Positions 736 to 40,740 of a DNA stretch of 42,045 nt are shown here, piece by piece; position 1 is the first letter of the stretch, and every line of letters begins with the position of its first letter. The DNA comes from a virus. The notes beneath the pieces are model-generated. The model saw only the letters and a program-made list of their open reading frames with translations, was not told the origin of the DNA and searched no databases. The DNA lies in IMG/VR virus record IMGVR_UViG_3300045988_083426, one strand, 5' to 3'. The translations under genes were made by a program, and so were the position numbers.

Positions 736-755
736 CAACAACTGGAGGAATGAAT

Positions 756-1206: not shown

Positions 1207-1422
1207 TTACTCTTCAATCTGGTCGGTCATTTGCTGGAGTTTGGCGACGAGCTCTTTCGCAAGATCAAGGTTCATCGTAAGTGAAGCGACGGGTTCCTCG
1301 TTGACCTTGGAAAAGGAATCGTCGTTTTCCTCAAAGTCCGGAAAGCGCTGCACAAACTGGAGCACTATTTCGCCGCCGTCGGCGCGGACAGAGACACGAA
1401 AACCGTTGGTATAGCTGTACAT
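1207..1422 (-). CDS. DUF3467-like small protein (71 aa), third gene of the toxin-antitoxin operon
   Basis: YTNGFRVSVRADGGEIVLQF...LTMNLDLAKELVAKLQQ resembles my recollection of the DUF3467 pattern. AGGAGG SD upstream. Confidence 0.5.
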   Translation of the reverse strand: MYSYTNGFRVSVRADGGEIVLQFVQRFPDFEENDDSFSKVNEEPVASLTMNLDLAKELVAKLQQMTDQIEE

Positions 1423-1821: not shown

Positions 1822-1822
1822 A

Positions 1823-9020: not shown

Positions 9021-10867
9021 CGGACTGGGAGGCCTTCCGGCAGGCGCTGCCGGAGACGGCTCCGAAGGAGCTTATCGACTGGGCCGCACGGACGCAGAAG
9101 GACGAGCTCGGCGGGGAGCTCTGCCTGTTCTCGCGGGAGAGCGTGAGCTGGTTGGAGGACGAGCCGCAGGAGATCATGACGCCGGAGGATATCGAGCGGC
9201 GCGAAAAGACGCGCCGGCGGACGTGGGGCGCACGGTGCAGCTGCACGGCCTGCGGCGAGGACTTCGTCGCGGGATGGCTGCGCGGGCTGAAGCTGCCCGG
9301 AAATCGGGAGATCCGCGGGATAGCGCTGCTGCAGGGGGACGACGGGCTCCTTTACGAGGGAATCCCGGACATGGAGGACGCCTGCTGGCGCATGAGCGCG
9401 GCGGAGATCGCGGAGACGGATCACTTCGACTGCCCGCTCTGCGGGGCGGACGTACAGCTGGTGCGGCGGAAGGATCTGCGCGGCGGGCGGACGCATCAGG
9501 TGCAGGTCGTGACGGCGGAGGTGATCCACGGGGTGACGGTGCTGCTCTACTGGATGGTACGCCGGGAATTCGACGAATACGGCGGCAGCGGCGCTGCCGC
9601 GTGGCCGAGAGAGGCAATCGCCCTGACGGAAAAGGGCGGGCTGAAACGTTTTACACGGGCGAAATGCAACCAGTTCGGCACCGAGTGGGACACGGGCGAG
9701 TGGCGCGCGGTGCGGCAGATGCGCGACCCGGAGACGGTCAAATACTACAGCTGGGAAGCAAACTCCCACAAGAAAATCGGCGCCGCCGTCCGGCCGGAGG
9801 TGCCGGATCTCACGGGGAGCACGGGGGAGAAAACCGGGCTCGAGGACTACATCCGCGCCGGAGGCCAATGGCCGGTGCAGTATCTGAAGCTGTGGAAACA
9901 GCACAGAAACGTCGAAAATCTGGCCCGCGCGGGCTGGGGGCGGACGCTCGGCGGCGCCATCGAGGAGATGGCATGGAATCAGGTCATGGCGCCCTACGCG
10001 GTACATGAAATTGAACTGCGGTGGATCGACTGGAACGAGGTGAAGCCGGGGCGGATGCTCGGCATGAGCAAGGCGGAGGTCAAGGCGCTCGCGGGACGCT
10101 GGGACTGGCAGACGGCAGACGCGTGGGCGGTTTACCGGTGCTGGCAGGGCGGCTGCACGGCGGAGGAATTCGACCGGTGCCGCGCGGAGCTGGGGCCGGA
10201 GGGACTGCAGGTGCTCGTGGGCATGATCGAGGACGGGCACGAGGTGCCGCTGCTGAAAGCGGCGCGGTACATCAAAAAGCAGGAGCAGCGGCGCGGCGGG
10301 GATCTGGCGCGGACATTCCTCGACTACCGCGAGATGCTGGACGCGGACGCGACGGAAGAGGAGCTCTGGCCGAAGGATCTCGTCGCGGCGCACGACCGGC
10401 TCGCGCAGATCCACGGCGACAGGGACGCGCGGCAGTACACGGAGGCGATGCGGCAGCTCGCGCAGGAGCTGGCGGCGCTGGCGTGGAGCGACGGGGAGAT
10501 CTGCATCCGGGCGGCGGCGACGCCGGGCGAGCTCAAGGAGGAGGGGCGCGTGCTCAAGCACTGCGTCGGCGACTACTGCAAAAAGCACGCGGCGCGGACG
10601 GACGTGATTTTCTTTGTGCGGCACGCGCGGCGGCCGGAGCGGAGCTGGTACACGCTCGACATCAACATGACGGGGCGGATCCCGAAGGAGGTCCAGCTGC
10701 ACGGCTACCGGAACGAATGGTACGGGAAGGCCGGGCACGGAAAAATTCCGCAGAAGGTGCGGGATTTCTGCGACCGGTGGGAGCGCGAGGTGCTCGCGCC
10801 GTGGTACGCGCAGCGGCAGGAGACTGCCCGTAAAGACAAGCAGAAGAGGAGGAAAACGAGCGCATGA
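9017..10867 (+). CDS. PcfJ-like protein (616 aa)
   Basis: C-terminal EEGRVLKHCVGDYCKKHAARTDVIFFVRHARRPERSWYTLDI matches the PcfJ-like signature (L.HCVg.Y...I.f.R). ATGA overlap start at 9017. Confidence 0.65.
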   Translation: MTDWEAFRQALPETAPKELIDWAARTQKDELGGELCLFSRESVSWLEDEPQEIMTPEDIERREKTRRRTWGARCSCTACGEDFVAGWLRGLKLPGNREIRGIALLQGDDGLLYEGIPDMEDACWRMSAAEIAETDHFDCPLCGADVQLVRRKDLRGGRTHQVQVVTAEVIHGVTVLLYWMVRREFDEYGGSGAAAWPREAIALTEKGGLKRFTRAKCNQFGTEWDTGEWRAVRQMRDPETVKYYSWEANSHKKIGAAVRPEVPDLTGSTGEKTGLEDYIRAGGQWPVQYLKLWKQHRNVENLARAGWGRTLGGAIEEMAWNQVMAPYAVHEIELRWIDWNEVKPGRMLGMSKAEVKALAGRWDWQTADAWAVYRCWQGGCTAEEFDRCRAELGPEGLQVLVGMIEDGHEVPLLKAARYIKKQEQRRGGDLARTFLDYREMLDADATEEELWPKDLVAAHDRLAQIHGDRDARQYTEAMRQLAQELAALAWSDGEICIRAAATPGELKEEGRVLKHCVGDYCKKHAARTDVIFFVRHARRPERSWYTLDINMTGRIPKEVQLHGYRNEWYGKAGHGKIPQKVRDFCDRWEREVLAPWYAQRQETARKDKQKRRKTSA

Positions 10868-27587: not shown

Positions 27588-30500
27588 ATGAGCGATTTTC
27601 TGAAACGGAGGATTCAGGAGCGCGACGAACAGCGGCGGGGCACGCAGGAGACGAGCGCGCCCGCCAGCTCGTTTTTGCAGCAGCGGATCCAGCAGAGGGA
27701 CACGCAGCGCGCGGAGAGCGGCTACCGCGCGCCGACGGGGACGCACAAGACGATGCTCGGCATGTCGCTCGAGGAGTACAAGGCCAAGCTCGACGAAGCG
27801 CTGGCGGCATGGAAGAGCACAAGCGCGACGACGGAGAGCGGCCTTGCAAACCCGAAGGAGGCACAGGCGCGCAAAACGTATCAGACGATGCGCAAGCAGT
27901 ACAAGGCCCTGCAGCAGCGCGAGAGCGAGAAGCAGCAGGCGCAGGCGGCGCAGCAGGAGTATGACGAGCTGCGCGTCGCAGACCTGAACGCGCTGAAGGC
28001 AAAGATGGACGCGGCGAAGGAATCGGCGGACGGCTCGGCGAAGGAGCGCGTCGTCGCGGGGAGCATCGTCAAGCAGAAGGACTCCGGCGCGCAGGCCGCC
28101 TATGAGGAGGCGGCGCGCAAGTATAACCTCGCGCAGCAGATCCAGTACGACGAGCGCGGCGCACAGGCGCTGGGCAAGCTCTCGGAGGAGGAAGCGGCGG
28201 CGGTCGACACGCTGGCAAAGAGCACAAACAAGGGGCGGAAAACGGACATCGTGGGCGCGGGGATCATCGACGAAATGCGCCGCAAGGCAACGAAGGTGCT
28301 CACGGACGCGGGGTACAGCGCGGAGGAGATCGACGAGCTGGCGAACTGGCGGGCGCGCCAGCAGAACGCGCAGAAGTATGACGCGGCGGTGGAAAAACGC
28401 GAGGCGCTCGCGGACAAGGGCCTCTGGGGCGCAGCGGCGGCGACGGCGCTGTCCGTGCCGGAGACGCTGCTGAGCGGCATCGGCGTGATCGACGTCGCCG
28501 TCCAGAACTACGAAAACCGCGGGACAGACCGCCCGGCGGATTACAAGCGCACGGCGATGCTGCCATACGCCATGGCGACGGCGGGGCGGAGCACGATCTC
28601 GAACAAGCTCGAACAGAACACCGACGCAGAGATCTTCGGGCAGAACGTCGCGGCGGGTGCTTACAACATCGGGACGAGCGTGCTCGATTCGACGGCGGTG
28701 GCGGGGCTGGCCGCGCTGGGCGTGCCGCCGCTGGCGGCGACGTCGCTGCTCGGCGGCGCGGCGGCGACGAGCGCGATGGTCGACGCGAAGGATCGGGGCG
28801 TTTCAGACGAGCAGGCAGTGCTCACGGGCCTTGCGGCGGGCGTGGCGGAATCGCTGTTTGAAGAAGTGTCTCTTGAGAAACTGCTCAAGCTGAAGCCGGC
28901 GGTCGGGACACTGGGGCAGCGAGTGCGCACGACGATCAAGAACGTGGGATTGCAGGCGGCGACGGAGGGCTCGGAGGAGTTCTTCACGACGCTGGCGAAC
29001 ACCATGACGGACAACCTGATTAACGGGGGACTGAGCGAATTCCAGCAGAATCTCCGGGGCTACATGGAGCAGGGGATGAGCGAGGAGCAGGCCCGGCGGC
29101 GCGCGTATCTGGATCTCGCGGGACAGCTGGCACTCGACTTCGGCGGCGGCGCCATCGCGGGCGGATTGATGGCGGGCGGACAGACGGCCATCCAGACCGG
29201 ACAGCGCAACGCGGCGATTGCGCAGGAGTACGGCGACATTGCGCGCGGCGCGGCGCAGGAGCGGCTTGAGACAAACGAGGGCGACCGGCTGGCGCAGGAC
29301 GTACAGAACCGTGTAAGCTCCAACCGGCGGGTCGGCGGCGGGGCCATCGCGGAGCTGGTGAGCCGAAACGTACAGGCGCAGAACGCGCAGACGCAGACGG
29401 CCATCGCGGAAGCGGCGGCGCAGCGGCTGACGGAGCTGGGCGAGACGGAGAACGTGGAGACCGTCGCGCAGGCGGCGGCGCAGCTGACGGCGGACCCGAC
29501 GATGAGCGCGGGCCGACGCCGGGCGGCGGAGAACGTCCTGAAGGGCAGCCGGTACGGCGAGCGCGTGCTCGGCGAGCTGACGGAGGGGATGCAGGCCGAC
29601 AGCGCGGAGAGCGCCCCCGCCGCGGTGCAGGAGCAGAGCGCCGTGCCGAGCGCGGAGCAGGTGCGGCAGGCCGTGGAGAGCACCCAACGGAGCCGGGGCG
29701 CGCAGAACCTGACGGAATCGCGCGGGGGCGAGGAGCGCACGCAGAGCGGGCGGCGGTTCGCGTCCGAATGGGCGGGGAACCTGCCGCAGGTGCTGACGGA
29801 GGACGCCTACGTCCGGCGGCTGAAAGAATTGCGCGTGAATCCCCAGGCGACGGACAGCCGGACGGTGACGGGCACGGCCTACAACAAGGAGAGCGGCAAG
29901 CTCGACGTGATTGTCCGGGGTACGGACGGCAAGGTGGAGACGATCCCGGCGGCGAAGGCGGCCACTACGGCGCGGCAGGAGCGGCTCATGGAGCTGGCGG
30001 CGGACGTGGGCGAGGCGGGGCCGCAGATGTTCGCGGCGATCCGCGACGGGCAGGACGTGGAGACGTATGCACGGCAGTGGAAGAACGCCTACACCTACGG
30101 CGAGAGCAACATCCCGCGCGCCTACGCGATGCAGTCGGACGCGGTGAAGTATCTGACGGCGGAGCAGCGGGACATCGCGTATGAAGCGGGAAAGGCCGCC
30201 TACGACCAGAAACAGACCAAGGCGCGCACGAAGCGCGCGGCAAGGGGGAACGATACCCACAAGGCAAAGAAGGGCACTGTGAAGCTCACAGGGGCCGTTA
30301 TCGGCGGCAAGCGGTATGACGGGGTGAGCAAAGCGTCGCTGACGGAGCGGCAGCGGGCGAACCTCAAGGTGCTGGGGCAGGTCGCGCAGGCGACGGGCGT
30401 TGACATCGTGCTCTATCAGAGCCGGGCGAACGCGCGCGGCGAGTACGAGGGGCAGAACGGCGCCTACAAGGACGGCACGCTCTATCTCGACATCAACGCG

Positions 30501-33500
30501 GGGAGAAACCGCGTGGGGGATCTGAGCGAGGTGGCCGTGGTGCGGACGGCGGCGCACGAGCTGACGCACTTTATTCAGGACTACAACCCGGCGGCTTACG
30601 CAGAATACCGCGATTATGTGGTGGGGCTGCTCACAGAGGAGCAGGGCATGGACTTCGACGCGCTGGTGGAGCACAAGCAGGCGCTGCAGAACGACCTGAG
30701 CTATGACGAGGCCGTGGACGAGGTGGTCGCGGACGGCAGCGAGATGCTGCTGCGCGACACGGCGGCGGTGCAGCGGCTGGCCGAGGAGAACCGGGGGCTG
30801 TTCCAGAAAATCCGGTCGTGGCTGCGCAAGTGGCTCGAGAACATCAAAAAGGCGTTCGACGGCGTGGGTGCGGAGCACGCGGAGGCAAAAGCGCTCGAAA
30901 AGCATCTCGAGGAGCTGCAGAAGCGCTGGGACGACGCGCTCGTCGGCGCGTCGCGAAATTTGCAGAGGAGCAGGGCGGAAGCGGAGAGTGCCGGCGAGAA
31001 AGCGTCCGTGCGTGGAAAATACTGGCGGCCGGATCTCAATCGGTCGGAATGGAATCTTCTGAACCGGCGGCTGGAGGAAGAAATCGAAAGTTCCGGACAG
31101 TATATTGACGAATCGACGAAATGGCTGTATGCTGATGAAAAAGGCGTACAGGTGTTCGCTTTGTACGGCATCGGTGACGGCACGGAGGCCACGCCGCTGT
31201 ATGCGGTTGGCGGGAAGCAGGCCAGATATGCGGCATCCCTTATGCAGGATGTTATTGAGGAGGTTGGAAGAAGTGACGGAAACGCAGAAGGATTTGATTC
31301 ATGGGCTGAAAATCTTCGGAGCAAAAACGGGAACTATCGTAGAAATTATGCTCAGGCTGGAGACGGAAAGCCAGCAGGAAGAAATGCTGGGCTACATGGT
31401 AGATCACAGGGACGCAACACCGGAAAGCCTGCTGGAGATGGCAAGGGCAAGTCGTCCGGCGTAAGGGAAAAGTTCTCCCTGCGAGACAGCGCGGGGCGCG
31501 AGCTGACGGCGGCGCAGCAGGAATACTTCCGTGACAGTCAGGTGCGGGATGCGGACGGGAATCTGCTGGTCATGTATCACCAGACAGAGGGCGCGTTCAC
31601 AGTGTTCGATACCCGGCACAAGGGCGCGGGAACCGGCGACGATGAAACGCCGTTCGGCATCTTCCTGAAACGGACGGCGCGGGATATCGGCGTTCGCGGA
31701 AAGAACCAGATGGAGCTTTACGCGAACATCCGCAACCCGCTGCGCGTGCGTGATCGCGCGGAGCTGGTCGAACGGCTTCGCGAGCTGTCCGGAACATACG
31801 CGGAGCTGAAAGACCAGTCGGGGAAGATCGACAAGGAATACGGCGCGAAGTTCGCAGAAGCGAAGGCCGCTTTCAAAAACTTCCTTTTGCAGTGGCGCAA
31901 GGAAAACCCGGATGCACCGAGCCGGGCGGCCTATGACGCGGAAGGTTTTGATGCCGCATTCGACGCAGAGGACAACGTGGTAAAGGAATGGACGCAGAAG
32001 AAAGACGAGCTTGCGCTGCGTGCGAAAGAGGCCATTACCGACGCGCTGCGCAAAAACGGCTATGACGGCGTGATTCTGGAGAGTGACCGTGGCAGCTGGG
32101 GGCGCAGCACGGATGCCTACATTGCGCTGGACGCGAATCAGGTGAAGAACGTCACGAACCAGAACCCGACGGAGGATCCGGACATCCGGTATTCCGCGCG
32201 GGATTATGGGTTGACGGAGGACGAGGAACATGCTATCGTCAGTTATAAGTCGGGCGACAGCTACGCGCTGAACGGGAAGCTCGCGACCGGCGGGAAGCTG
32301 ACAGAGCTGCAGAGGTCGCTGCGCGACCATCTGGACACGGCGCTGGAGAAGCTGCCGGTCTACAAAGGAACGGTGTACCGCCACTACGACTTCGACTCTT
32401 TCGGCGGGTACGAGGCAATGGCGGAGTTCCTGTCGCAGTTCGCAAAGGGCAGAGCTGTACCGATGAGCAGTTATCTGTCGGCCAGCACGGTGCGCAACGA
32501 GGATCGGACGAACGGCGAGTATACGGTCGACATGGTGATCCAGTCTGAGACGGGACGCAGCCTGAACGGTTTCGGTCGGGATACAGAGAACGAGGTGCTG
32601 CTGTCGAGGACGACCGAGCTGATCGCCGATTCTATGGAGCTTATCAGCCCGCACAAAGTGAGAATTACAGCACGGGAGGTTGTAAAAAATGGAACAGGAA
32701 CGGCCGCCGATTCTGCATCAGTTGGTGTGCGCGACGTGCGAGAAAGCGAACAGAGAACTGACGGATTGCGACAAGTATCCGGACGGAATCCCGGAGGAGT
32801 ACAGACGGAAAGTGGAAGGTCTGCCGGACGAGACGGGGACGCCGGATTGTCCGGACTACGAGAGGGAACACGATCCGGATCGCTGGGTGAACCCGGAGTG
32901 GAAAGCGATTATCGAGCAGCTGAGGAAGGGCTGAAATACCAGCCGAGGGAGCAGAGCGTGAGCGACCGGCAGATTCTGGCGAACGCGCTGGAGCGCGTGG
33001 CGCAGAACGAGCGGGAGAGGTCCATTCTCGCGGACTACCGGGAGAAGGCCGCAAAGATGGCCTTTTATGAGAGGGAGCTGGCTAAGCGCGAGCAGAAGAT
33101 CGCCGACCACCGCAGCGGAAAGGCCGTTCTCGAGCCGGACAAGCTCCGGCGGGCGGAGGTCTCGGCGCAGAAGTACGCCGCGCTGATCAGCCAGCAGGAC
33201 GAGCGGCTGCTGCGGCTGGAGAAGCTCAAGCCGCTGCGCGACGTGGTGACGCGGGAGCGAGACTACATCGCCGAGCGGCTGCGCGGCGCCGCGGAGGAGA
33301 AGAGCCGCTACACGGCGGAATTCGAGCGGCAGCTGAGCGAGGAGCGCAAGCGCGGCGAGGAGCGGCTGCAGCAGTACCGCAAAGGCCGCGAGGAGCGCGA
33401 CGACATCCGCGTGGAGCGGCGGCAGATCGAGAAGCTGGCGAAGCGGCTGACGACGTATCTCGAGGAGAACACGGACAAGAAGCACATCCCGGAGGCGCTG

Positions 33501-36500
33501 AAAAAGCCGATCGGGGAGCTGCTGCAGTCGCTGGACTTCTCGTCCAAAACAAAGCTCTCGTCCGGGGCGGCGACGAAGACCGACCTCGCGTACATCCGGT
33601 CGATGCAGCGGATCGAGGCCGTACTCGCGGCGCAGGAGCGGTTCGACGAGACGGGCGAGGGCGGCGACCTGATCACAGGGACGCTGGATCTGCCGAAGGG
33701 CTTCCGCGAGGCGCTGGCGGAGCAGATCGAGCGGGTACAGACGATCATGGAGACGCACCAGCCGGGCGAGCGCGCGGTCATGCGGATGAATCTCGCCGAC
33801 CTGCGGAAGCTGCGGGTGATGCTCTCGACGCTCTCCAGCGCGGTGACGAAGATGAACGAGCTGTTCGCAAACGGGCAGTTCCGGCACGTCGATCAGGCGG
33901 CGCAGGACACGATTTTTACGCTGCGCGAGAAGGGGCAGCACCAGTCGCTCCTGCCGAAGGTCGAGAGCTTCGTCCGGTGGGACAACACGCTGCCGTGGTA
34001 CGCGTTCCAGCGGCTGGGCGAGGGCGGACAGTCCATCTTCGCGGAGCTGCAGGACGGCTGGGACAAGCTGGCGTTCAACACGCAGAAGATCCTCAAATTC
34101 CGCAAGGAGCTGATCGACGACAAGACGGCGCGCAAGTGGGACACGGAGGTACACGAGGTCGAGCTGACCGACCAGGACGACAACACCGTCAAGGCGAAGC
34201 TGACGACGGCACAGCTGATGAGCCTTTACTGCCTCTCGCGGCGCCGGCAGGCGCTGGGGCATCTGCTCGGCGGCGGCATCCGGCCGGCGGATATCGAGCT
34301 GACGGCGAACATCAAAGACAAGGTGCTGAAAAAGACCGAGAAGCAGGACACGCACTATCACCTGACGGACGAGCGGCTGGGGCAGCTGCTGGGTCTGCTG
34401 ACGGACGAGCAGCGCGAGATCGCGCAGAAGATGCAGAAGTACATGACGGAGCAGGGCGCGACGTGGGGCAACGAGATCACGATGGCGCGCTGGGGCTACC
34501 GGGCGTTCACGGAGGAGAACTATTTCCCGCTGACGACCGACCGCGAGGACCGGCCCGCCCGCGCGGACGACGCGTCGGAGGGAAGTCTTTACCGGCTGCA
34601 GAACATCTCGGCGACGAAGCCGCTGACGCAGAACGCGAACAACGCGGTGATGCTCTACAGCATCTTCGACGTGTACGCCGACCACATGGCGGACATGGCC
34701 AAGTACAACGCGATGGTGCTGCCGATCCTCGACGCGCAGAAGTGGTACAACTACAAGGAAGGCCACAAGAACGAGGCGGGGCAGGTGAGCACATGGACGG
34801 TGCAGCGGACGCTGACGCAGGTTTACGGGCGGGACGCGAACCGGTTCGTGATCCAGTTCCTGAAGGACCTGAACGGCGTGAAGGAAAACGGCGCGCGGGG
34901 CGAGGGTCTCGCGAAGAAGATGATCTCGAACTACAAGCGGGCAGCGGTCGCGGCCAACCTGCGCGTGGCGCTGCTGCAGCCGACGGCGTATGTGCGCGCG
35001 TCGGCGGTGCTGGACGCGAAGTATCTGACGCGCGCCTTCGGCGAGCGGACGAGCACGAAGGAAGCGACGGCGGAGATGCTGGCGCGCAGCGGCATCGGCC
35101 TGTGGAAGAGCATGGGCATGTTCGACACGGACGTCGGCCGGAGTATCCGCGACCAGATCAAGGGCAAGGGCAGCGCGGTGGAATCGCTCGTGGACAAGAC
35201 GATGGTGCTCGCGGAGAAGGGCGACAGCATCACATGGGCGCGGCTCTGGCGCGCGTGCAAGCTGGAGGTTCAGGACAAGCAGCACCTCTCGGGCGAGCAG
35301 CTGCTGGACGCGACGGCGAAGCGGTTCCGCGAGGTGATCTACCGGACGCAGGTGATCGACAGCACCATGACGCGCAGCCACATGATGCGCTCGGGGTCGA
35401 CGTTTGTGGCGATCTTCACGAGCTTCATGTCGGAGCCGACCGTCTCCTACAACCTCATCATGACGGCATCGGAGAAGATCTGGGAGGACACGAAGAAGTA
35501 CGGCGCGAAGATGGCCGTGAAGCGCAACTGGAAGACGGCGGGGCGGGCGTGGCAGGCGTACATCCTGTCGGCGGTCGCGTCGGCGATGGTGGAAGCGCTG
35601 GCGGACGCATGGCGCGATCCGGGCGACGACAAGGACACGCAGAAGCTGCTCAACGCCTTCCGCGACAACCTCGGAAGCGACCTGAACCCGCTCAATAAGC
35701 TGCCGGGCCTGCGGGACATCTTCTCGATTTTCGAGGGATACGACACGAACCGGACGGACATGGCGGCGTTCAGCAACCTGAACAAGGCCATCGCCATCTG
35801 GAAGGAGACGATCCAGCTCGCAAACGGCACGATCGACGAGGCGACGGACACGACGTACCACGGGAACATGACGATCTACGGCAAGGTCTATAAAACGGCG
35901 CAGGCGCTGTCGCAGCTGAGCGGACTGCCGGTGTCGGCGACGATGCGCGAGGCGCAGGCGCTCTGGAACAACACGGTGGGCCGGTGGGCGCCGGGGCTGA
36001 AACAGAAGACCTATGACAACGAGAAGCAGCGGCTCATCCAGAAGGCCGGAACGGCCATGTGGAACGGAGACAAGGACGCATGGCAGGATGCATACGCGGC
36101 GCTGGAGCAGTACATGCTCGCAGACGGCAAGAGCAAGCGCGAGGCGGAGAGCGCCGTCTACAGCGAGATGCGCAAGGCCGTGAAGGATTCCTATCTCGCG
36201 GGCGAGCTGACGGAGACGGAAGCGCGGCAGAAGCTCGTGGACTTCCTCGGATCGGACGCGGAGAAGGCCGCGCAGCAGGTCACGAGCTGGAAGAATGGCT
36301 CGGAGTTTGCGAAGGAGGTCGGGTTCGAGTACGGCGAGATGCGCAGCGCCTATGAGACGGGACGGATCCAGAAGAGCGAGGCGGTGCGCCTGCGCCAGAA
36401 GTACGGCGGCGAGACGCAGGACGAGGCCGAGAGCAAGGTGCGGTACTGGGATTTCTGCATCGAATATCCGCAGTACGACGACATCAGCGAAGCGCGGGCG

Positions 36501-36743
36501 AACAAGTACTACGACTACTGCCGGCAGGCGGGCGTGGGCGTCGCGGCGTATTACAAGGCGGCGCAGTACACGGCGGCCATCGTGAGCGAGAAGGACGAGG
36601 ACGGCAACAGCGTCTCCGGCTCGGTCAAGCGGCAGTACGTGGAGTACATCCAGTCGCTGGGGCTCTCGGCAGCGCAGCAGAAGGCGCTGTGGCAGGCGCT
36701 GAAAAACGCGACATGGAGCGACAAGGGGACGCCGTGGGAGTAA
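27588..36743 (+). CDS. Giant polyvalent virion protein (3051 aa) with HExxH metallopeptidase and ADP-ribosyltransferase motifs
   Basis: One uninterrupted frame. AAHELTHFIQ at 30555-30569 (H990). ART R-S-ExE triad: VYRH (R1598, 32379), YLSAST (S1631, 32478), ENEVLL (E1667 and E1669, 32586-32594). Confidence 0.8.
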   Translation: MSDFLKRRIQERDEQRRGTQETSAPASSFLQQRIQQRDTQRAESGYRAPTGTHKTMLGMSLEEYKAKLDEALAAWKSTSATTESGLANPKEAQARKTYQTMRKQYKALQQRESEKQQAQAAQQEYDELRVADLNALKAKMDAAKESADGSAKERVVAGSIVKQKDSGAQAAYEEAARKYNLAQQIQYDERGAQALGKLSEEEAAAVDTLAKSTNKGRKTDIVGAGIIDEMRRKATKVLTDAGYSAEEIDELANWRARQQNAQKYDAAVEKREALADKGLWGAAAATALSVPETLLSGIGVIDVAVQNYENRGTDRPADYKRTAMLPYAMATAGRSTISNKLEQNTDAEIFGQNVAAGAYNIGTSVLDSTAVAGLAALGVPPLAATSLLGGAAATSAMVDAKDRGVSDEQAVLTGLAAGVAESLFEEVSLEKLLKLKPAVGTLGQRVRTTIKNVGLQAATEGSEEFFTTLANTMTDNLINGGLSEFQQNLRGYMEQGMSEEQARRRAYLDLAGQLALDFGGGAIAGGLMAGGQTAIQTGQRNAAIAQEYGDIARGAAQERLETNEGDRLAQDVQNRVSSNRRVGGGAIAELVSRNVQAQNAQTQTAIAEAAAQRLTELGETENVETVAQAAAQLTADPTMSAGRRRAAENVLKGSRYGERVLGELTEGMQADSAESAPAAVQEQSAVPSAEQVRQAVESTQRSRGAQNLTESRGGEERTQSGRRFASEWAGNLPQVLTEDAYVRRLKELRVNPQATDSRTVTGTAYNKESGKLDVIVRGTDGKVETIPAAKAATTARQERLMELAADVGEAGPQMFAAIRDGQDVETYARQWKNAYTYGESNIPRAYAMQSDAVKYLTAEQRDIAYEAGKAAYDQKQTKARTKRAARGNDTHKAKKGTVKLTGAVIGGKRYDGVSKASLTERQRANLKVLGQVAQATGVDIVLYQSRANARGEYEGQNGAYKDGTLYLDINAGRNRVGDLSEVAVVRTAAHELTHFIQDYNPAAYAEYRDYVVGLLTEEQGMDFDALVEHKQALQNDLSYDEAVDEVVADGSEMLLRDTAAVQRLAEENRGLFQKIRSWLRKWLENIKKAFDGVGAEHAEAKALEKHLEELQKRWDDALVGASRNLQRSRAEAESAGEKASVRGKYWRPDLNRSEWNLLNRRLEEEIESSGQYIDESTKWLYADEKGVQVFALYGIGDGTEATPLYAVGGKQARYAASLMQDVIEEVGRSDGNAEGFDSWAENLRSKNGNYRRNYAQAGDGKPAGRNAGLHGRSQGRNTGKPAGDGKGKSSGVREKFSLRDSAGRELTAAQQEYFRDSQVRDADGNLLVMYHQTEGAFTVFDTRHKGAGTGDDETPFGIFLKRTARDIGVRGKNQMELYANIRNPLRVRDRAELVERLRELSGTYAELKDQSGKIDKEYGAKFAEAKAAFKNFLLQWRKENPDAPSRAAYDAEGFDAAFDAEDNVVKEWTQKKDELALRAKEAITDALRKNGYDGVILESDRGSWGRSTDAYIALDANQVKNVTNQNPTEDPDIRYSARDYGLTEDEEHAIVSYKSGDSYALNGKLATGGKLTELQRSLRDHLDTALEKLPVYKGTVYRHYDFDSFGGYEAMAEFLSQFAKGRAVPMSSYLSASTVRNEDRTNGEYTVDMVIQSETGRSLNGFGRDTENEVLLSRTTELIADSMELISPHKVRITAREVVKNGTGTAADSASVGVRDVRESEQRTDGLRQVSGRNPGGVQTESGRSAGRDGDAGLSGLREGTRSGSLGEPGVESDYRAAEEGLKYQPREQSVSDRQILANALERVAQNERERSILADYREKAAKMAFYERELAKREQKIADHRSGKAVLEPDKLRRAEVSAQKYAALISQQDERLLRLEKLKPLRDVVTRERDYIAERLRGAAEEKSRYTAEFERQLSEERKRGEERLQQYRKGREERDDIRVERRQIEKLAKRLTTYLEENTDKKHIPEALKKPIGELLQSLDFSSKTKLSSGAATKTDLAYIRSMQRIEAVLAAQERFDETGEGGDLITGTLDLPKGFREALAEQIERVQTIMETHQPGERAVMRMNLADLRKLRVMLSTLSSAVTKMNELFANGQFRHVDQAAQDTIFTLREKGQHQSLLPKVESFVRWDNTLPWYAFQRLGEGGQSIFAELQDGWDKLAFNTQKILKFRKELIDDKTARKWDTEVHEVELTDQDDNTVKAKLTTAQLMSLYCLSRRRQALGHLLGGGIRPADIELTANIKDKVLKKTEKQDTHYHLTDERLGQLLGLLTDEQREIAQKMQKYMTEQGATWGNEITMARWGYRAFTEENYFPLTTDREDRPARADDASEGSLYRLQNISATKPLTQNANNAVMLYSIFDVYADHMADMAKYNAMVLPILDAQKWYNYKEGHKNEAGQVSTWTVQRTLTQVYGRDANRFVIQFLKDLNGVKENGARGEGLAKKMISNYKRAAVAANLRVALLQPTAYVRASAVLDAKYLTRAFGERTSTKEATAEMLARSGIGLWKSMGMFDTDVGRSIRDQIKGKGSAVESLVDKTMVLAEKGDSITWARLWRACKLEVQDKQHLSGEQLLDATAKRFREVIYRTQVIDSTMTRSHMMRSGSTFVAIFTSFMSEPTVSYNLIMTASEKIWEDTKKYGAKMAVKRNWKTAGRAWQAYILSAVASAMVEALADAWRDPGDDKDTQKLLNAFRDNLGSDLNPLNKLPGLRDIFSIFEGYDTNRTDMAAFSNLNKAIAIWKETIQLANGTIDEATDTTYHGNMTIYGKVYKTAQALSQLSGLPVSATMREAQALWNNTVGRWAPGLKQKTYDNEKQRLIQKAGTAMWNGDKDAWQDAYAALEQYMLADGKSKREAESAVYSEMRKAVKDSYLAGELTETEARQKLVDFLGSDAEKAAQQVTSWKNGSEFAKEVGFEYGEMRSAYETGRIQKSEAVRLRQKYGGETQDEAESKVRYWDFCIEYPQYDDISEARANKYYDYCRQAGVGVAAYYKAAQYTAAIVSEKDEDGNSVSGSVKRQYVEYIQSLGLSAAQQKALWQALKNATWSDKGTPWE
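31273..31464 (+). CDS. Nested alternative-frame ORF 1 (63 aa) inside the polyvalent gene
   Basis: GAGGAGG (31257-31263), 9 nt, then GTG. VTETQKDLIHGLKIFGAKTGTIVEIMLRLETESQQEEMLGYMVDHRDATPESLLEMA. GC3 about 60% versus about 38% for the host frame over the same nucleotides (hand count). Confidence 0.5.
   Translation: MTETQKDLIHGLKIFGAKTGTIVEIMLRLETESQQEEMLGYMVDHRDATPESLLEMARASRPA
32689..32934 (+). CDS. Nested alternative-frame ORF 2 (81 aa, Cys-rich) inside the polyvalent gene, right after the ART domain
   Basis: GGGAGG SD 8 nt before the ATG. CATCEKA...CDKYPDGIP...CPDYE. GC3 about 74% versus about 41% for the host frame (hand count). Confidence 0.55.
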   Translation: MEQERPPILHQLVCATCEKANRELTDCDKYPDGIPEEYRRKVEGLPDETGTPDCPDYEREHDPDRWVNPEWKAIIEQLRKG

Positions 36744-36971: not shown

Positions 36972-37226
36972 TCAGGACTTTATCTTTTGAAGGAGCGTTC
37001 CGACAGAGAACGGAAGAGGGGGCAGGGTATTTGACCGGTAGCGCTTCATGAAGTCTAAAACGGTTACACCCGTCAGTTCGTCCGTGTCGATGTCCCTCAA
37101 GTAGATAATACCAGCTTCGCTGTCGTCACCATAGGAATTGTCTCTATCTCCAAGGGCGACATACAGAACGTCGTATTTGGCATCGTAATCAAATTGCAGG
37201 CTTGCCCTCTGCGACATATAATGCAT
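36972..37226 (-). CDS. DUF2283-like protein (84 aa)
   Basis: LQFDYDAKYDVLYVALGD...GIIYLRDIDTDELTGVTVLDF matches the DUF2283 pattern (YD.e.D.lyi.l...G..i). Confidence 0.65.
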   Translation of the reverse strand: MHYMSQRASLQFDYDAKYDVLYVALGDRDNSYGDDSEAGIIYLRDIDTDELTGVTVLDFMKRYRSNTLPPLPFSVGTLLQKIKS

Positions 37227-37281
37227 CTCCCTTCGAGCTGCCGCTGCGCGGATTTTTAGAGGTTTCCCTCACGGCAAATCT

Positions 37282-37310
37282 ATTCTACCACGAAGGAGAC
37301 CTCCAGACAA
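37282..37310 (-). promoter_or_regulatory. Promoter of the DUF2283-like gene (R element copy 1)
   Basis: -35 TTGTCT (37305-37310), 17-nt spacer, TG-extended -10 TAGAAT (37282-37287). Confidence 0.6.
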
Positions 37311-37329
37311 GAAATTTTTGGATTAGGGG

Positions 37330-37370
37330 TTGACAAACGTATCCACGTAATATATTATAAACGTGGATAC
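37330..37370 (+). promoter_or_regulatory. Promoter/operator of RHH gene 1
   Basis: -35 TTGACA (37330-37335), 17-nt spacer, -10 TATTAT (37353-37358). Perfect inverted repeat GTATCCACGT (37339-37348) / ACGTGGATAC (37361-37370) brackets the -10. Confidence 0.7.
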
Positions 37371-37388
37371 GGAAATGGAGGTGAACAT

Positions 37389-37559
37389 GTGTCTCCTAAA
37401 GGACGGCCGACGGACGACCCGAAAACCCTGAATACAAGAATCCGGTTATCCGAAGAGGATACAAAGCGACTTGAGTTCTGCGCAGAAGCGCTGGGAATCA
37501 CAAAGTCGGAAGTGATTCGGCGGGGAATCAAGGAAGTCTATGACGGACTAAAAAAATAA
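37389..37559 (+). CDS. Ribbon-helix-helix (Arc/Mnt/CopG-like) repressor 1 (56 aa)
   Basis: GTG start after GGAGGT. TLNTRIRLSEEDTKRLEFCAEALGITKSEVIRRGIKEVY has a beta-strand plus two-helix RHH layout. Confidence 0.7.
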   Translation: MSPKGRPTDDPKTLNTRIRLSEEDTKRLEFCAEALGITKSEVIRRGIKEVYDGLKK

Positions 37560-37624
37560 CAGAAACGCCCGCCTGTGGAAAGTTGAGCGTTTCTGCTATT
37601 GAACCAGAGGTTTCCCAACTGGAT
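37551..37624 (-). ncRNA. Predicted antisense sRNA 1 (about 74 nt), Sar-like
   Basis: Promoter: -35 TTGTCT (37654-37659), 17-nt spacer, TG-extended -10 TAGAAT (37631-37636). Intrinsic terminator CAGAAACGC...GCGUUUCUG followed by UUAUUUUUU. Antisense to the 3' end of RHH1 and the downstream spacer. Confidence 0.55.
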
Positions 37625-37790
37625 AAATTCATTCTATCACAGTGGGAGCCTCCAGACAAGAACTATTTTGGAGGTTTATTATGGAAAATCGAATCACGCT
37701 GTTGGAGCAGATCGAGAGACTGCTGGCACTGGCCAGCGAGGAGCAGCTGCGGATCCTGTATGTGGCCGCGCTGTACCTTGTGTAAGGGGG
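37604..37790. repeat. R element copy 2 (about 187 bp direct repeat)
   Basis: About 5 mismatches against 38114-38300. Contains the leftward promoter and the 34-aa ORF. Confidence 0.9.
37681..37785 (+). CDS. 34-aa microprotein, family copy 2 (MENRITLLEQIERLLALASEEQLRILYVAALYLV)
   Basis: GGAGG SD 6 nt upstream. Identical peptide at 38191; the two nucleotide differences between the copies are both synonymous. Confidence 0.6.
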   Translation: MENRITLLEQIERLLALASEEQLRILYVAALYLV

Positions 37791-37834
37791 GTGGCGGTTG
37801 AACCGACACCCGCATAATTTTTTCAAATTAGGGG

Positions 37835-37873
37835 TTGACTTTTGTACGGACGTAATATATTATTTATGTACGG
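37835..37873 (+). promoter_or_regulatory. Promoter of RHH gene 2
   Basis: -35 TTGACT (37835-37840), 17-nt spacer, -10 TATTAT (37858-37863). TGTACGG direct repeats flank the -10. Confidence 0.65.
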
Positions 37874-37892
37874 GCAAAAGTGAGGTGATTGC

Positions 37893-38069
37893 ATGTCCCC
37901 GAAAACAGGACGCCCGACCAGCAACAAGAGAACCAAACGGCTTGAAATCCGGATGGCACCTGATGAAGCGCAGCTCCTTCAGGAGTGCGCGGATGAACTT
38001 CAAGTGTCGAAAACGGAAGTAATCGTCAAAGGAATTCGACTTGTGAAAGCTGAGTTGGAAAAGAAATGA
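37893..38069 (+). CDS. Ribbon-helix-helix repressor 2 (58 aa)
   Basis: MSPKTGRPTSNKRTKRLEIRMAPDEAQLLQECADELQVSKTEVIVKGIRLV, an RHH layout. N-terminal MSPK..GRPT is shared with RHH1. Confidence 0.7.
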   Translation: MSPKTGRPTSNKRTKRLEIRMAPDEAQLLQECADELQVSKTEVIVKGIRLVKAELEKK

Positions 38070-38134
38070 GCGCATGGGCTACAGCTTGCAGGCACACCCA
38101 TACGCTCAAAACACCAGAGGCTTCCCAACTGGAT
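38058..38134 (-). ncRNA. Predicted antisense sRNA 2 (about 77 nt)
   Basis: Same promoter as sRNA 1: -35 at 38164-38169, -10 TAGAAT at 38141-38146. Terminator GAGCGUAUGGG...CCCAUGCGCUC followed by AUUUCUUUUCC. Confidence 0.5.
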
Positions 38135-38300
38135 AAATTCATTCTATCACAGTGGGAGCCTTCAGACAAGAATTATTTTGGAGGTTTATTATGGAAAATC
38201 GAATCACACTGTTGGAGCAGATCGAGAGACTGCTGGCACTGGCCAGTGAGGAGCAGCTGCGGATCCTGTATGTGGCCGCGCTGTACCTTGTGTAAGGGGG
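38114..38300. repeat. R element copy 3
   Basis: Near-identical to 37604-37790. Confidence 0.9.
38191..38295 (+). CDS. 34-aa microprotein, family copy 3
   Basis: Same peptide as 37681-37785. Ends 12 nt before the ant start codon. Confidence 0.6.
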   Translation: MENRITLLEQIERLLALASEEQLRILYVAALYLV

Positions 38301-38307
38301 TGGCGGC

Positions 38308-39069
38308 ATGAACGATCTGACGGTGTTTCAGAACCCGGAGTTCGGGGAGATCCGCACCATCGAAGAAAATGGCGACGTGCTGTTTTGTGGAACTGATGTT
38401 GCAAAGGCGCTGGGGTATATTAACCCGCGCGATGCAGTTGGGAGACGCTGCAAAGGCGTCGTGAAACGCGACGCCTATACAAATAGGCGACAGACAATGT
38501 CCTTCATTCCGGAAAGCGACCTGTACCGGCTTGTATTCGGCTCGAAGCTGCCGTCCGCGGAACGCTTCGTGGACTGGGTGACGGAAGAAGTCCTCCCCAG
38601 CATCCGCAAGACCGGGCGGTACGAAGTCCAGCCGAAGCCCATGACGATGGCCGAGAACGTCGCGGCGCAGGCGCAGCTGCTGGTGGAGCAGGAGCAGCGC
38701 ATCGCGCGGATCGAGGAGCGGGTGGAGACGGCGCTGACGGCCATCGCCCGCCCCAGCGGGGACACATGGGTGGAGGACATGAAGGCGGCCATCGCGGGGT
38801 ACTGCCGCGCGACGGGGCTGACGGAACCGGCGGGGCGGGGGCGGCTCTACGCGATGCTCGACCGGGAGGCCAGCTGCAATACGGACGCCCGGCTCCGGCG
38901 GCTGCGCCAGCGGCGGAAGGAGACGGGGGAGCGCCGGCGGGACTACATGGCGCTCACGAAGCTGGACGCCATCGCAGTGGATCAGAAGCTGCGGGTGGCC
39001 TTTGAGGGGCTCGTGGCCCGGGAAAACGCCCGCGCCGCGCAGAAGGACGAAATTGCCAAGCGCTTGTGA
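38308..39069 (+). CDS. ant: Antirepressor with BRO-N domain (253 aa)
   Basis: LTVFQNPEFGEIRTIEENGDVLFCGTDVAKALGY...SFIPESDLYRLVFGSKLPSAERFVDWVTEEVLPSIRKTG is the Bro-N/AntA signature. Confidence 0.85.
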   Translation: MNDLTVFQNPEFGEIRTIEENGDVLFCGTDVAKALGYINPRDAVGRRCKGVVKRDAYTNRRQTMSFIPESDLYRLVFGSKLPSAERFVDWVTEEVLPSIRKTGRYEVQPKPMTMAENVAAQAQLLVEQEQRIARIEERVETALTAIARPSGDTWVEDMKAAIAGYCRATGLTEPAGRGRLYAMLDREASCNTDARLRRLRQRRKETGERRRDYMALTKLDAIAVDQKLRVAFEGLVARENARAAQKDEIAKRL

Positions 39070-39320: not shown

Positions 39321-39773
39321 ATGAAAGAAAACGCAATCAAGGCCGTGCTTGCGGCAGCGCTGGGGGCGCTGGCATCCTACGGCACGCAGCTCATCGTCCC
39401 GGCGATCATCCTTGTCGCGGTGATGGTGCTGGACTACATCACCGGCATGGCCAAGGCGTGGCAGGCCGGAGAGCTGAGCAGCCGCGTCGGCATCGGCGGC
39501 ATCCTGAAAAAGGTCGGCTATCTGGTGATCGTCGCGGTGGCCTGCGTGCTGGACTGGCTGGTGCGGTATGGTGCGGATCAGATGGGACTGGACTGGCGGC
39601 TGGATTTCCTGATCGCGTCTATTGTGGTGATCTGGCTGGTGATTAACGAGCTGATCTCGATTTTGGAGAATGTGGCCGCGCTGGGCGCGCCGGTGCCGGG
39701 ATTTCTGCAGAGTCTGATTAAGCGGCTGAAGGTGAGTGTGGAGGACAAGGTCGAACCGAAGGAGGAAACCTGA
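39321..39773 (+). CDS. Holin (150 aa)
   Basis: Several TM segments (AVLAAALGALASYG, VPAIILVAVMVLDYITG, VGYLVIVAVACVLDWLV, IVVIWLVINELISILEN) fit the phage holin 4-type family. Directly upstream of the endolysin. Confidence 0.8.
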   Translation: MKENAIKAVLAAALGALASYGTQLIVPAIILVAVMVLDYITGMAKAWQAGELSSRVGIGGILKKVGYLVIVAVACVLDWLVRYGADQMGLDWRLDFLIASIVVIWLVINELISILENVAALGAPVPGFLQSLIKRLKVSVEDKVEPKEET

Positions 39774-40471
39774 TGAACATCATCGAGAAGGACTACAACT
39801 GGGCGCACGAACTGTCTGCCCGTCAGGTCACGAACCTGATCATCCTGCACCACGCTGCGGCCAAATCTTGTACGGCAGCGGATGTACACAACTGGCATCT
39901 TAACCGGGGGTGGGCTGGCATCGGCTACCACTTTTTTGTCGGCAAGGACGGCAGCGTCACGCGTGGCCGTCCGCTCTGGGCAGTCGGCGCGCACGCCGAA
40001 AGCTGCAACTGGCGCTCTGTCGGCGTGTGCTTCGAGGGCGATTACCAGGCCGAGACGGAGATGCCCGCCGCGCAGCTGCAGGCCGGTCGTGAGCTGGTGC
40101 AGTATCTCAAGGCTAAGCTGGGCGTGGATCGTGTGGTTGGCCACCGCGACGTTGCAGTGGCGGGGACGAGCTGCCCCGGCCAGTATTTCCCGTTCGATGC
40201 GATTTGTGCGACGGACAACAACAACACTAATACCGAGGAGGATATTATCATGGTAGCAACTCAGATGATCGGCAACGGCGACCGTGGCAACGCGGTGCGC
40301 AGCATGCAGGGTGCGCTCATCGCGCAGGGCTATAAGTGTGGCAGCTACGGCGCGGACGGTATCTGCGGCGCGGCGACCGTGGCGGCGATCAAGGCTTGTC
40401 AGCGCGCAAACGGCCTGACGGCGGACGGCATCTGCGGCCCCGACACGTGGGGTGCGCTGCTGGCCAAGTAA
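39773..40471 (+). CDS. Endolysin: N-acetylmuramoyl-L-alanine amidase (Amidase_2/PGRP) plus PG-binding domain (232 aa)
   Basis: ILHHAAA...WHLNRGWAGIGYHFFVGKDGSV...GAHA...HRDV...SCPG amidase-2 motifs. C-terminal ALIAQGYKCGSYGADGICGAATVAAIKACQ PG_binding_1. Confidence 0.85.
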   Translation: MNIIEKDYNWAHELSARQVTNLIILHHAAAKSCTAADVHNWHLNRGWAGIGYHFFVGKDGSVTRGRPLWAVGAHAESCNWRSVGVCFEGDYQAETEMPAAQLQAGRELVQYLKAKLGVDRVVGHRDVAVAGTSCPGQYFPFDAICATDNNNTNTEEDIIMVATQMIGNGDRGNAVRSMQGALIAQGYKCGSYGADGICGAATVAAIKACQRANGLTADGICGPDTWGALLAK

Positions 40472-40489: not shown

Positions 40490-40518
40490 TTGACGGAAAA
40501 CGAGCCGTGCGGTAGAAT
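40490..40518 (+). promoter_or_regulatory. Near-consensus promoter facing attP
   Basis: -35 TTGACG (40490-40495), 17-nt spacer, -10 TAGAAT (40513-40518). No ORF with an SD follows. Confidence 0.55.
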
Positions 40519-40600
40519 ATTGACATAGCAGCGCCGCAAGGTGCAGCAACACCGCCGGAGTGGGGATCAGGCGCCCTGCTTCGGCGGTGTTGTATTTAAA

Positions 40601-40621: not shown

Positions 40622-40669
40622 AACGACACAGAAGTGTTTAATACCAATAGTTTTAAAGGGAATTAGGCA

Positions 40670-40695
40670 GGGTTCGACTCCCCTCAGCTCCACCA
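40670..40695 (+). other. attP core: copy of a tmRNA (ssrA)-type 3' end
   Basis: GGGTTCGACTCCCCTCAGCTCCACCA is a T-loop, T-stem 3' strand, Ala-type acceptor 3' strand CAGCTCC, and ACCA. No matching 5' half is present upstream. Confidence 0.7.
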
Positions 40696-40700
40696 AAACG

Positions 40701-40740
40701 AAATCCCTGAAACCGCAATGGTTTCAGGGATTTTTCTTTT
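40701..40740 (+). terminator. Rho-independent terminator following the tmRNA-like end
   Basis: aaatccctgaaacc / ggtttcagggattt stem followed by TTTTTCTTTT. Confidence 0.8.

Follow-up and report, generated by a model that had tools for sequence, protein, structure and literature searches.

The RHH-ant locus and its predicted antisense RNAs

The 42,045-nucleotide (nt) stretch of viral DNA IMGVR_UViG_3300045988_083426 (hereinafter the window, i.e., the entire sequence analyzed) contains a locus in which each of two genes for small repressors of the ribbon-helix-helix (RHH) family is followed, on the opposite strand, by a putative gene for a small antisense RNA, upstream of a gene for an anti-repressor of the Ant type. 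The components of this locus are the following (aa, amino acids; ORF, open reading frame; SL1 and SL2, stem-loops 1 and 2).

37389..37559, plus strand: RHH repressor gene 1, 56 aa (PF01402, phrog_876)
37551..37624, minus strand: predicted antisense RNA 1, about 74 nt, with SL1 at 37622-37604 (GAAA loop), SL2 at 37600-37555 and a U-tract at 37559-37550
37631..37659, minus strand: leftward promoter P_left-B, with -35 TTGTCT at 37659-37654, a 17-nt spacer and TGa-TAGAAT (-10 at 37636-37631)
37681..37785, plus strand: microprotein ORF 1, 34 aa, MENRITLLEQIERLLALASEEQLRILYVAALYLV, the first gene downstream of RNA 1
37893..38069, plus strand: RHH repressor gene 2, 58 aa (phrog_876)
38058..38134, minus strand: predicted antisense RNA 2, about 77 nt, with SL1 at 38132-38114, SL2 at 38108-38067 and a U-rich tail at 38066-38058
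38141..38169, minus strand: leftward promoter P_left-C, TTGTCT-17-TGa-TAGAAT
38191..38295, plus strand: microprotein ORF 2, with a protein sequence identical to that of microprotein 1
38308..39069, plus strand: Bro-N anti-repressor (Ant-type) gene

The first-pass annotation of this locus had placed a minus-strand promoter downstream of each RHH gene, facing a hairpin with terminator properties in the leftward direction only, and had predicted from this arrangement two discrete antisense RNAs of about 75 nt. A promoter scan combined with an exact pattern search finds the minus-strand TTGTCT-17-TG-TAGAAT promoters at precisely these places. Both P_left-B and P_left-C appear to be extended -10 promoters of the sigma-70/sigma-A type, judging from the two hexamers, a spacer within the 16-18-nt range and the TG at -15/-14. 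The composite pattern has three exact matches in the window, against 0.07 expected by chance, and the scan lists 7 promoter-like sites in 2.7 kb, compared with 1.6±1.1 in shuffled sequences. The third match, absent from the first-pass annotation, is located upstream of a minus-strand ORF and diverges from a rightward promoter:

36972-37226, minus strand (start at 37226): 84-aa ORF, phrog_36767, without a Pfam family
37282..37310, minus strand: P_left-A, the third copy of the leftward promoter, upstream of the 84-aa ORF and back to back with P_right1
37330..37373, plus strand: rightward promoter P_right1, TTGACA-17-TATTAT

The 5' untranslated region of the 84-aa ORF retains the SL1 hairpin, GGGAAACCUCU. 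At two other loci (L012 and L024), the same leftward promoter directly precedes a different protein-coding gene with its own Shine-Dalgarno (SD) sequence. Thus, together with copy A of the window, these loci indicate that this element serves as a promoter in several contexts.

Folding of the two hairpins agrees with the proposed leftward-only termination. The hairpin of RNA 1 (37555-37600) has a predicted energy of -30.2 kcal/mol on the minus strand (z=-5.7) vs -22.0 kcal/mol on the plus strand, and the hairpin of RNA 2 (38067-38108) has -33.9 kcal/mol (z=-3.3) vs -23.6 kcal/mol; the minus-strand folds are more stable because their G·U pairs become A·C mismatches on the plus strand. The U-tracts, UUAUUUUUUU and AUUUCUUUUCC, follow the hairpins on the minus strand only, so that the combination expected of an intrinsic terminator, a stable GC-containing hairpin and then a U-tract, is predicted on that strand. 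A simple terminator scan missed both hairpins because their loops exceed 8 nt. A search of both strands of the whole window for good promoters with a hairpin and T-tail 45-100 nt downstream found three such units in 42 kb, and two of these are RNA 1 and RNA 2.

The shared 5' segment that had been noticed in the two RNAs, AUCCAGUUGGGAA(A/G)CCUCUGGU, is found at 37624-37603 and 38134-38113. It includes the 5' hairpin SL1, which is present in both predicted RNAs and had been overlooked. The SL1 sequences of the two RNAs differ at one base, which forms G·U or A·C against the other target; since SL1 is otherwise common to both, the two RNAs probably cross-act on both target sites. The first-pass annotation had further described each RNA as fully complementary to the 3' end of an RHH gene and the spacer that follows. 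The spacer part of this statement holds, as each RNA is perfectly complementary to an untranslated segment that starts at the RHH stop codon, but the coding part was overstated: RNA 1 overlaps just 9 nt of RHH gene 1 and RNA 2 just 12 nt of RHH gene 2. The overlap consists of the C-terminal Lys codons together with the stop codon, and the U-tract of the terminator is encoded there.

At the gathering score, no Rfam family is detected either in the window or in 20 diverse relatives, and a permissive Rfam scan of the region yields chance-level matches only. A peptide encoded by the small RNAs was also considered and rejected, the sole candidate being a TTG-started frame of 26 codons, 6 nt from the 5' end, that lacks an SD.

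Conservation of the antisense RNA at RHH loci

Pattern scans of viral, genome and metagenome collections yielded 24 loci. These scans required the promoter hexamers and hence cannot show that the hexamers are conserved; loci were therefore collected through the RHH proteins alone. This search produced 124 usable loci, down to 35% protein identity, which form 50 clusters with less than 80% DNA identity downstream of the stop codon.

In 49 of the 50 clusters, an intrinsic terminator is predicted at the RHH stop codon on the minus strand, compared with 4 clusters on the plus strand. A promoter scoring at least 10 of 13.5 is present on the minus strand in 41 clusters and on the plus strand in 7, and many of the minus-strand promoters are a perfect TTGACA-17-TATAAT. 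When the identical fixed region, from stop-3 to stop+55, is folded for both strands, the mean energy is -20.2 kcal/mol for the minus strand vs -14.5 kcal/mol for the plus strand, with the minus strand more stable in 49 of the 50 clusters (Wilcoxon p=2e-9); G·U pairs account for 156 of the 918 predicted pairs on the minus strand vs 36 of 740 on the plus strand.

The predicted RNAs are uniform in length (median of 71 nt, interquartile range 67-75 nt), and all share a common design, namely the short 5' hairpin SL1 that starts 1-3 nt from the 5' end, a short linker, the long hairpin SL2, whose apical or internal loop is large, and a U-tail. In 41 of 47 clusters, SL1 folds more stably as minus-strand than as plus-strand RNA (p=4e-8), and a GNRA tetraloop closes it in 14 clusters on the minus strand vs 2 for the plus-strand complement. 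For SL2, covariation was assessed in a sequence-only MAFFT alignment of 16 hairpins from the subgroup with the loop motif AACUUUCCACGGUGG. RNAalifold recovers the SL2 stem from this alignment, with compensatory changes in 10 of the 12 pairs; 82.7% of the alignment cells are paired, compared with 66.0% in shuffled alignments, and the covariation score is 0.583 vs 0.321 in the shuffles (reached in 0 of 500) and 0.15-0.21 when the partners are slid. In the apical loops of SL2 (loci L025-L147 and the window), the minus-strand motifs AACUUUCCACGGUGG and CUUUGGUCGG recur despite unrelated stems. On the plus strand, the SL2 loops of 5 clusters contain UUGGCG, which presumably resembles a loop motif of plasmid antisense RNAs, although a literature search gave no confirmation and the similarity is an unverified lead.

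Taken together, the strand biases and the covariation show that selection acts on a structured RNA of the minus strand; they cannot be reconciled with either a relic or an element of the plus strand. Sequence comparison thus supports the predicted promoter, terminator, RNA structure and strand specificity, as well as their wide conservation. Given the near-universal minus-strand terminator, the strand asymmetry and the covariation of SL2, the discrete antisense RNAs of about 75 nt that had been proposed are, with high probability, real.

Rightward transcription and modular organization of the cassette

The RHH genes are preceded by rightward promoters, P_right1 and a second one:

37835..37875, plus strand: rightward promoter P_right2, TTGACT-17-TATTAT

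The -10 of P_right1 sits between the arms of a 12-bp inverted repeat, ACGTATCCACGT/ACGTGGATACG, which is presumed to be the operator of RHH1; repeats also surround the -10 of P_right2 and are presumed to be the operator of RHH2. The promoters of the RHH genes (37337-37373 in the window and the regions upstream of the RHH homologs in L028-L075) share a rigid design that consists of AAAACCTCTTGAC, a specificity repeat, the -10, the same repeat again, and AAAAGAGGTGA. The specificity repeat differs by RHH type (ATCCACA, CCGTACA, GCCATGGCA, GTCACCA and others), as would be expected for operators that co-vary with the repressor.

Between RHH gene 1 and the microprotein ORF, the sole plus-strand match resembling a promoter is CAGACA-18-TATTAT (9 of 12 positions), with a -10 that runs into the start codon, and the RHH genes appear to be co-transcribed with the microprotein and ant genes. 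The microprotein has no family in Pfam and PHROG searches. Its 34 codons are retained in 12 of 13 variants, and the differences among the variants are dominated by third positions (537, compared with 346 and 174 at the other positions); therefore, the ORF is a real coding gene. The Bro-N anti-repressor gene is presumed to be the final target of the cascade.

The double cassette is bounded by a direct repeat of 201 nt (37603-37803 and 38113-38313, 95% identical) that takes in SL1, the leftward promoter and the microprotein ORF and reaches the first bases of ant, and a degenerate ant start is left after copy 1 (GGCGGTTGAACCGAC vs GGCGGCATGAACGATC). These features suggest that the second RHH cassette was inserted by recombination within the shared segment. 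The close relatives L001 and L002 have a single cassette (RHH1, hairpin 1, the leftward promoter, the microprotein and ant). In L003, the RHH1 cassette comes after the gene of an unrelated small repressor, to which a separate leftward promoter, not homologous to that of the cassette (TTGACT-17-TAGAAT), and a leftward terminator belong. Altogether, five unrelated hairpin sequences are found in front of the same leftward promoter, each with a T-run on the minus strand, and most of them carry G·U pairs that are workable on the minus strand only.

Homologs of the RHH proteins are encoded in cultured phages, namely phiCD211 of Clostridioides difficile, many Streptococcus prophages, and Fusobacterium phages. 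The full unit is present in the prophage Javan527 of S. pyogenes NZ131, where a minus-strand TTGACT-17-TAATAT promoter with TG is accompanied by a minus-strand terminator and the predicted RNA has an energy of -26.8 kcal/mol, compared with -20.3 kcal/mol for its complement. This predicted RNA lies on the minus strand of Javan527 (MK448795.1), at about 10003-10081. phiCD211 is a partial example: the RHH gene is followed by an annotated anti-repressor gene, and the hairpin and the minus-strand U-tail are present, but the -35 is weaker (3 of 6) and the promoter scan lists no minus-strand promoter. The gene downstream of the cassette is of the Ant type in about 16 of 38 clusters (by cluster, Rha in 7, ORF6N in 5, Bro-N in 3, KilAC in 2 and AntA in 1); the remainder are small ORFs without a family, like the microprotein of the window. 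In L068, a skipping-rope RNA (Rfam RF02924, 52.3 bits; 1246-1342, plus strand) is located about 160 nt upstream of an RHH homolog that starts at 1501.

Proposed mechanism

The explanation that we consider best, and regard as probable as a whole, is that a small gene lies on the opposite strand behind each RHH repressor gene and, from a strong extended -10 promoter of the sigma-A type, would produce a two-hairpin RNA of about 75 nt in which SL2 doubles as the intrinsic terminator. This RNA would be a cis-antisense countertranscript to an untranslated stretch of the RHH-microprotein-ant mRNA and, together with the RHH repressor, would impose a two-layer negative control on the anti-repressor operon. 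That the RNA is made and acts as a repressor we infer; repression of the downstream operon in cis is likely. The proposal of the first-pass annotation, in which the RNAs oppose transcripts that read through from the RHH genes to the microprotein and ant, is supported within the reach of sequence analysis.

The way in which such repression would be achieved is less obvious, given that the RNA does not reach the ribosome-binding site. In the first copy, the positions are 37624 for the predicted RNA 5' end, 37669-37675 for the SD and 37681 for the ATG, so that the RNA ends 45 nt before the SD, which it does not cover because its own promoter occupies the interval. Across 40 clusters, the start codon is located 49-72 nt beyond the RNA's 5' end. 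The RNA is therefore predicted to act through a switch in the mRNA, the elements of which would be:

37607..37623, plus strand (mRNA): pseudo-SD arm AGAGGUUUCCCAACUGG, inside the target of RNA 1, pairing with 37637-37654; AGAGG is at 37607-37611
37648..37654, plus strand: anti-SD GCCUCCA, at the spacer and -35 edge of the leftward promoter; the copy 2 equivalent is GCCUUCA at 38158-38164
37669..37675, plus strand: SD UGGAGGU of microprotein gene 1; the copy 2 SD is at 38179-38185

These elements are connected to an inverted repeat, also absent from the first-pass annotation, that flanks the -10 of the leftward promoter, its left arm lying in the RNA target and its right arm in the promoter spacer. 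Read on the plus strand, the spacer and -35 edge form CCUCC, CUUCC or a similar anti-SD, 15-25 nt upstream of the SD. Without the RNA, the purine-rich arm (AGAGG...) would pair with the anti-SD embedded in the RNA's own promoter and leave the SD open; when the RNA is bound to this arm, the anti-SD would be freed and would close the SD in front of the microprotein gene and, by way of that gene, probably shut off ant as well. Promoter DNA that is transcribed on the other strand would thus act as the anti-SD of a three-part switch (pseudo-SD, anti-SD, true SD), and therefore a single segment of 90 bp would encode a promoter, the target of a small RNA and a translational switch.

The switch was examined in the same 40 clusters by partition-function folding of the plus-strand mRNA, with the target forced unpaired to mimic binding of the RNA. 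Blocking the target lowers the probability that the SD is unpaired from 0.35 to 0.15, with a decrease in 28 clusters and an increase in none (p=4e-10). With a shuffled target, this probability is 0.17, leaving the SD closed to the same degree as blocking does, and the native value is higher in 35 of the 40 clusters (p=8e-9). When the promoter segment is shuffled, the SD stays open despite a blocked target, with an unpaired probability of 0.39, and the native value is lower in 39 of the 40 (p=6e-11). In copy 2 of the window, the minimum-energy fold switches exactly as the model predicts, and in copy 1 the helix between the target and the anti-SD is favored before the SD is transcribed.

Several observations weigh against this scheme. 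At equilibrium, the SD of copy 1 is mostly closed already (unpaired probability of 0.14), so that the switch would require co-transcriptional folding to matter. The inverted repeat has no strand bias, the plus strand being better in 24 clusters and the minus strand in 23, and thus could be a DNA operator instead of an mRNA helix. The RNA overlaps neither the SD nor the start codon, the activity of the promoters and terminators is deduced from consensus and conservation, and thermodynamic predictions on short RNAs are weak evidence. Action through an anti-SD embedded in the promoter is a tentative proposal, which these folding models are consistent with but which we hold with less than even confidence. 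The convergent promoter, through transcriptional interference, could supplement the effect of the switch or take its place, as could processing of the 70-bp duplex by RNase III. A plus-strand attenuator of the pT181/pIP501 type was considered and rejected, since no plus-strand terminator is predicted: the scan detects no terminator-like site on that strand between the RHH genes and the microprotein and ant starts. The helix between the anti-SD and the SD is followed by UUUAUUAU, yet it has just 7 bp, with a 14-nt loop.

Alternative explanations

The strand asymmetry bears directly on the possibility that the hairpins are stabilizers or terminators at the 3' end of the plus-strand RHH mRNA, with the promoter copies being inert relics of a divergent-promoter duplication. 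Such a history would fit the three-copy repeat of the promoter segment in the window and the obvious coding gene that copy A has to drive. It would not account for terminators that are predicted in nearly all clusters on the minus strand and in hardly any on the plus strand, for the A·C mismatches that replace G·U pairs in the plus-strand versions, for the lack of a T-run after the hairpin on that strand, or for promoter hexamers that are retained in loci of unrelated sequence. The asymmetry tests largely refute this explanation, which appears extremely improbable. A different case is that the leftward promoter itself is what matters, blocking or colliding with polymerases that read through from the RHH gene; the terminator would then shield that gene from antisense transcription, and the 75-nt RNA would arise as a by-product. 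A near-consensus extended -10 promoter indeed lies between the RHH gene and the next SD at almost every locus, the RNA stops short of the SD, and Psar and Pant of phage P22 are likewise convergent. A plain insulating terminator, however, needs neither the minus-strand bias of SL1 and its GNRA loops, nor the large SL2 loops with recurrent motifs, nor the uniform length of the RNA, and we regard interference as the sole function as quite unlikely, although interference and action of the RNA are not mutually exclusive.

The inverted repeat at the leftward -10 can also be read as an operator, in which case the antisense RNA would itself be switched and the mRNA switch would be an artefact of the palindrome. 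The repeat is pronounced (z of at least 3 in 30 of 49 clusters), its strand neutrality is what a DNA site would exhibit, and the RHH promoters have the same geometry, with repeats flanking the -10. A specific version of this idea, with the adjacent RHH protein as the ligand, was examined and rejected, as the arms are unlike the repeats of the RHH promoters in most of 22 loci, with z near 0; three of the 22 loci reach z of 2.8-4.8, and the match in L025 merely reflects promoter copy A within the upstream stretch compared. Furthermore, the arms do not recur elsewhere in the window, e.g., near the CI-like gene, and arms of 10-18 bp spaced by about 16 bp are atypical for operators. The complementarity between the anti-SD and the SD lies outside the palindrome and would still be unexplained. 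An operator instead of a switch appears unlikely. Finally, the main action of the RNAs might be in trans, with the SL2 loop or SL1 engaging other mRNAs of the phage or the host and the cis position being incidental. The motifs AACUUUCCACGGUGG and CUUUGGUCGG of SL2 and GGGAAACCUCU of SL1 are conserved even though the stems differ completely, and pure cis-antisense pairing does not need such conserved loops; the conservation can, however, also be explained by the kinetics of loop-loop recognition. The position behind the RHH gene and before the Ant-type operon is invariant, and no other site complementary to the SL1 segment was found in the window. A predominantly trans-acting RNA is, in our assessment, highly unlikely, and the cis-acting countertranscript remains the preferred explanation.

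Other features of the window

The RHH-ant region is flanked by a gene for a 3051-aa structural protein (27588-36743) and by the lysis genes:

39321-39773: holin gene, on the lysis side of the region
39773-40471: amidase gene, on the lysis side of the region

The third unit detected by the scan for a promoter coupled to a terminator is located on the plus strand at 40490-40600, between the amidase and integrase genes. It consists of a TTGACG-17-TAGAAT promoter that ends at 40518 and a hairpin at 40550-40589 (-30.7 kcal/mol) followed by UAUUUAAAAU, and may represent another RNA of about 75 nt. Nearby, GGTTCGACTCCCCTCAGCTCCACCA at 40661-40735 is similar to the 3'-terminal part of a tRNA or tmRNA gene, is followed by a terminator hairpin and is probably the core of the attachment site. 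ARAGORN detects no complete tRNA anywhere in the window. Genes for a HicB-like antitoxin (705-1151, plus strand) and an HTH_3 protein of 202 aa (1438-2046, minus strand) are located at the left end. The HTH_3 protein is a candidate for a CI-type repressor and could be targeted by the Bro-N anti-repressor.

Implications

Anti-repressors decide when temperate phages leave lysogeny, and the Sar RNA of phage P22, encoded directly behind an RHH repressor gene, has long been the main textbook example of an antisense RNA that guards an anti-repressor gene. If these RNAs are real, the combination of an RHH repressor with a constitutive countertranscript is a common arrangement among phages that infect Clostridia of the human gut, streptococcal prophages (including those of S. 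pyogenes), Fusobacterium phages and a large phage of C. difficile, in all of which the control of induction is poorly understood. Annotation resources would gain a compact RNA family that they do not yet list, plasmid copy control (CopG/RNAII) would be linked with phage immunity circuits, and an antisense RNA that binds upstream would have a testable new way of closing a ribosome-binding site. Direct tests can draw on two cultured systems, Javan527 of S. pyogenes NZ131 and phiCD211 of C. difficile. The broader view, in which phages of Firmicutes and Fusobacteria use the RHH-plus-countertranscript cassette as a general immunity module that can be stacked and that has a mechanism undescribed for Sar or RNAII, is a speculative one, which we consider possible but somewhat doubtful.

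Comparison with known systems

The first-pass annotation had likened the predicted RNAs to Sar, and the similarity extends to position and to the two-hairpin design. In the P22 sequence X01916, Rfam places sar at 599-532, with arc ending at 531 and ant starting at 600, so that this two-hairpin RNA exactly fills the interval between the arc stop codon and the ant start codon. As predicted for the window, the RHH repressor (Arc) of the P22 immI arc-sar-ant module is co-transcribed with the anti-repressor, the RNA (about 68 nt) is encoded on the opposite strand, its terminator abuts the repressor stop codon, and the module is inserted in the late-gene region. The likeness does not extend to membership in the sar family or to coverage of the SD. 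With E values of up to 10 allowed, the sar model (RF00262) still has no match in 37200-38400, and at the gathering score it has none anywhere in the window, whereas the positive control, P22 X01916, scores 97.8 bits; the window RNAs have neither sequence nor covariance-model similarity to sar. Sar covers the SD of ant (586-589 in X01916) and its promoter is inside ant, whereas in the window the promoter is intergenic, a microprotein gene intervenes and the cassette is stacked twice. Since the window RNAs stop 45 nt short of the SD, unlike Sar, their mode of action must differ in detail. The hosts differ as well, being Clostridia, Streptococcus and Fusobacterium for the cassette family and enterobacteria for the P22 type.

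Other systems share parts of this logic. In plasmids pIP501 and pT181 (CopR + RNAIII; attenuation), a repressor is combined with an antisense RNA, and upstream binding of the RNA refolds the nascent mRNA downstream. As in the mechanism proposed here, alternative pairing decides the outcome, but in these plasmids it forms a transcription terminator whereas in the window the alternative helix would close the SD. OOP of phage lambda is an antisense RNA of 77 nt that is transcribed from a promoter just downstream of cII and overlaps the 3' end of cII; the window RNAs would likewise originate from a promoter 3' of a regulatory gene and overlap its 3' end. OOP covers about 50 nt of coding sequence and works via RNase III cleavage of the mRNA of the upstream gene, whereas in the window 9-12 nt of the RHH gene are covered and the likely target is the downstream gene.

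The closest match in geometry is copG-RNAII-repB of plasmid pMV158, in which the RHH repressor CopG (PF01402) is co-transcribed with repB, and RNAII, a 48-nt RNA, consists of one hairpin, which is the terminator, and a 17-nt single-stranded 5' tail (PMC4485353). Like the window RNAs, RNAII is complementary to the intergenic region beside the RHH stop codon, upstream of the translation signals, which it does not cover (PMC4485353). In both cases, a hairpin doubles as the intrinsic terminator and the hosts belong to Firmicutes. The window RNAs differ from RNAII in their length of 74-77 nt, their two hairpins and the structured 5' hairpin, and in the target, which is a replication initiator in pMV158 and an anti-repressor operon in the window. 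The Rfam models of ctRNAs yield no match, the best being ctRNA_pGA1 with 14.6 bits (E=7.2), compared with a gathering score of 45, and full-text literature searches retrieve no description of such RNAs in phages. Resembling Sar and RNAII in logic but without an Rfam match, the window RNAs belong to neither family. The cassette is best described as a widespread 'RHH repressor plus countertranscript' variant on phage anti-repressor operons, itself new, that follows the same logic as arc/sar/ant of P22 and copG/RNAII/repB of pMV158.

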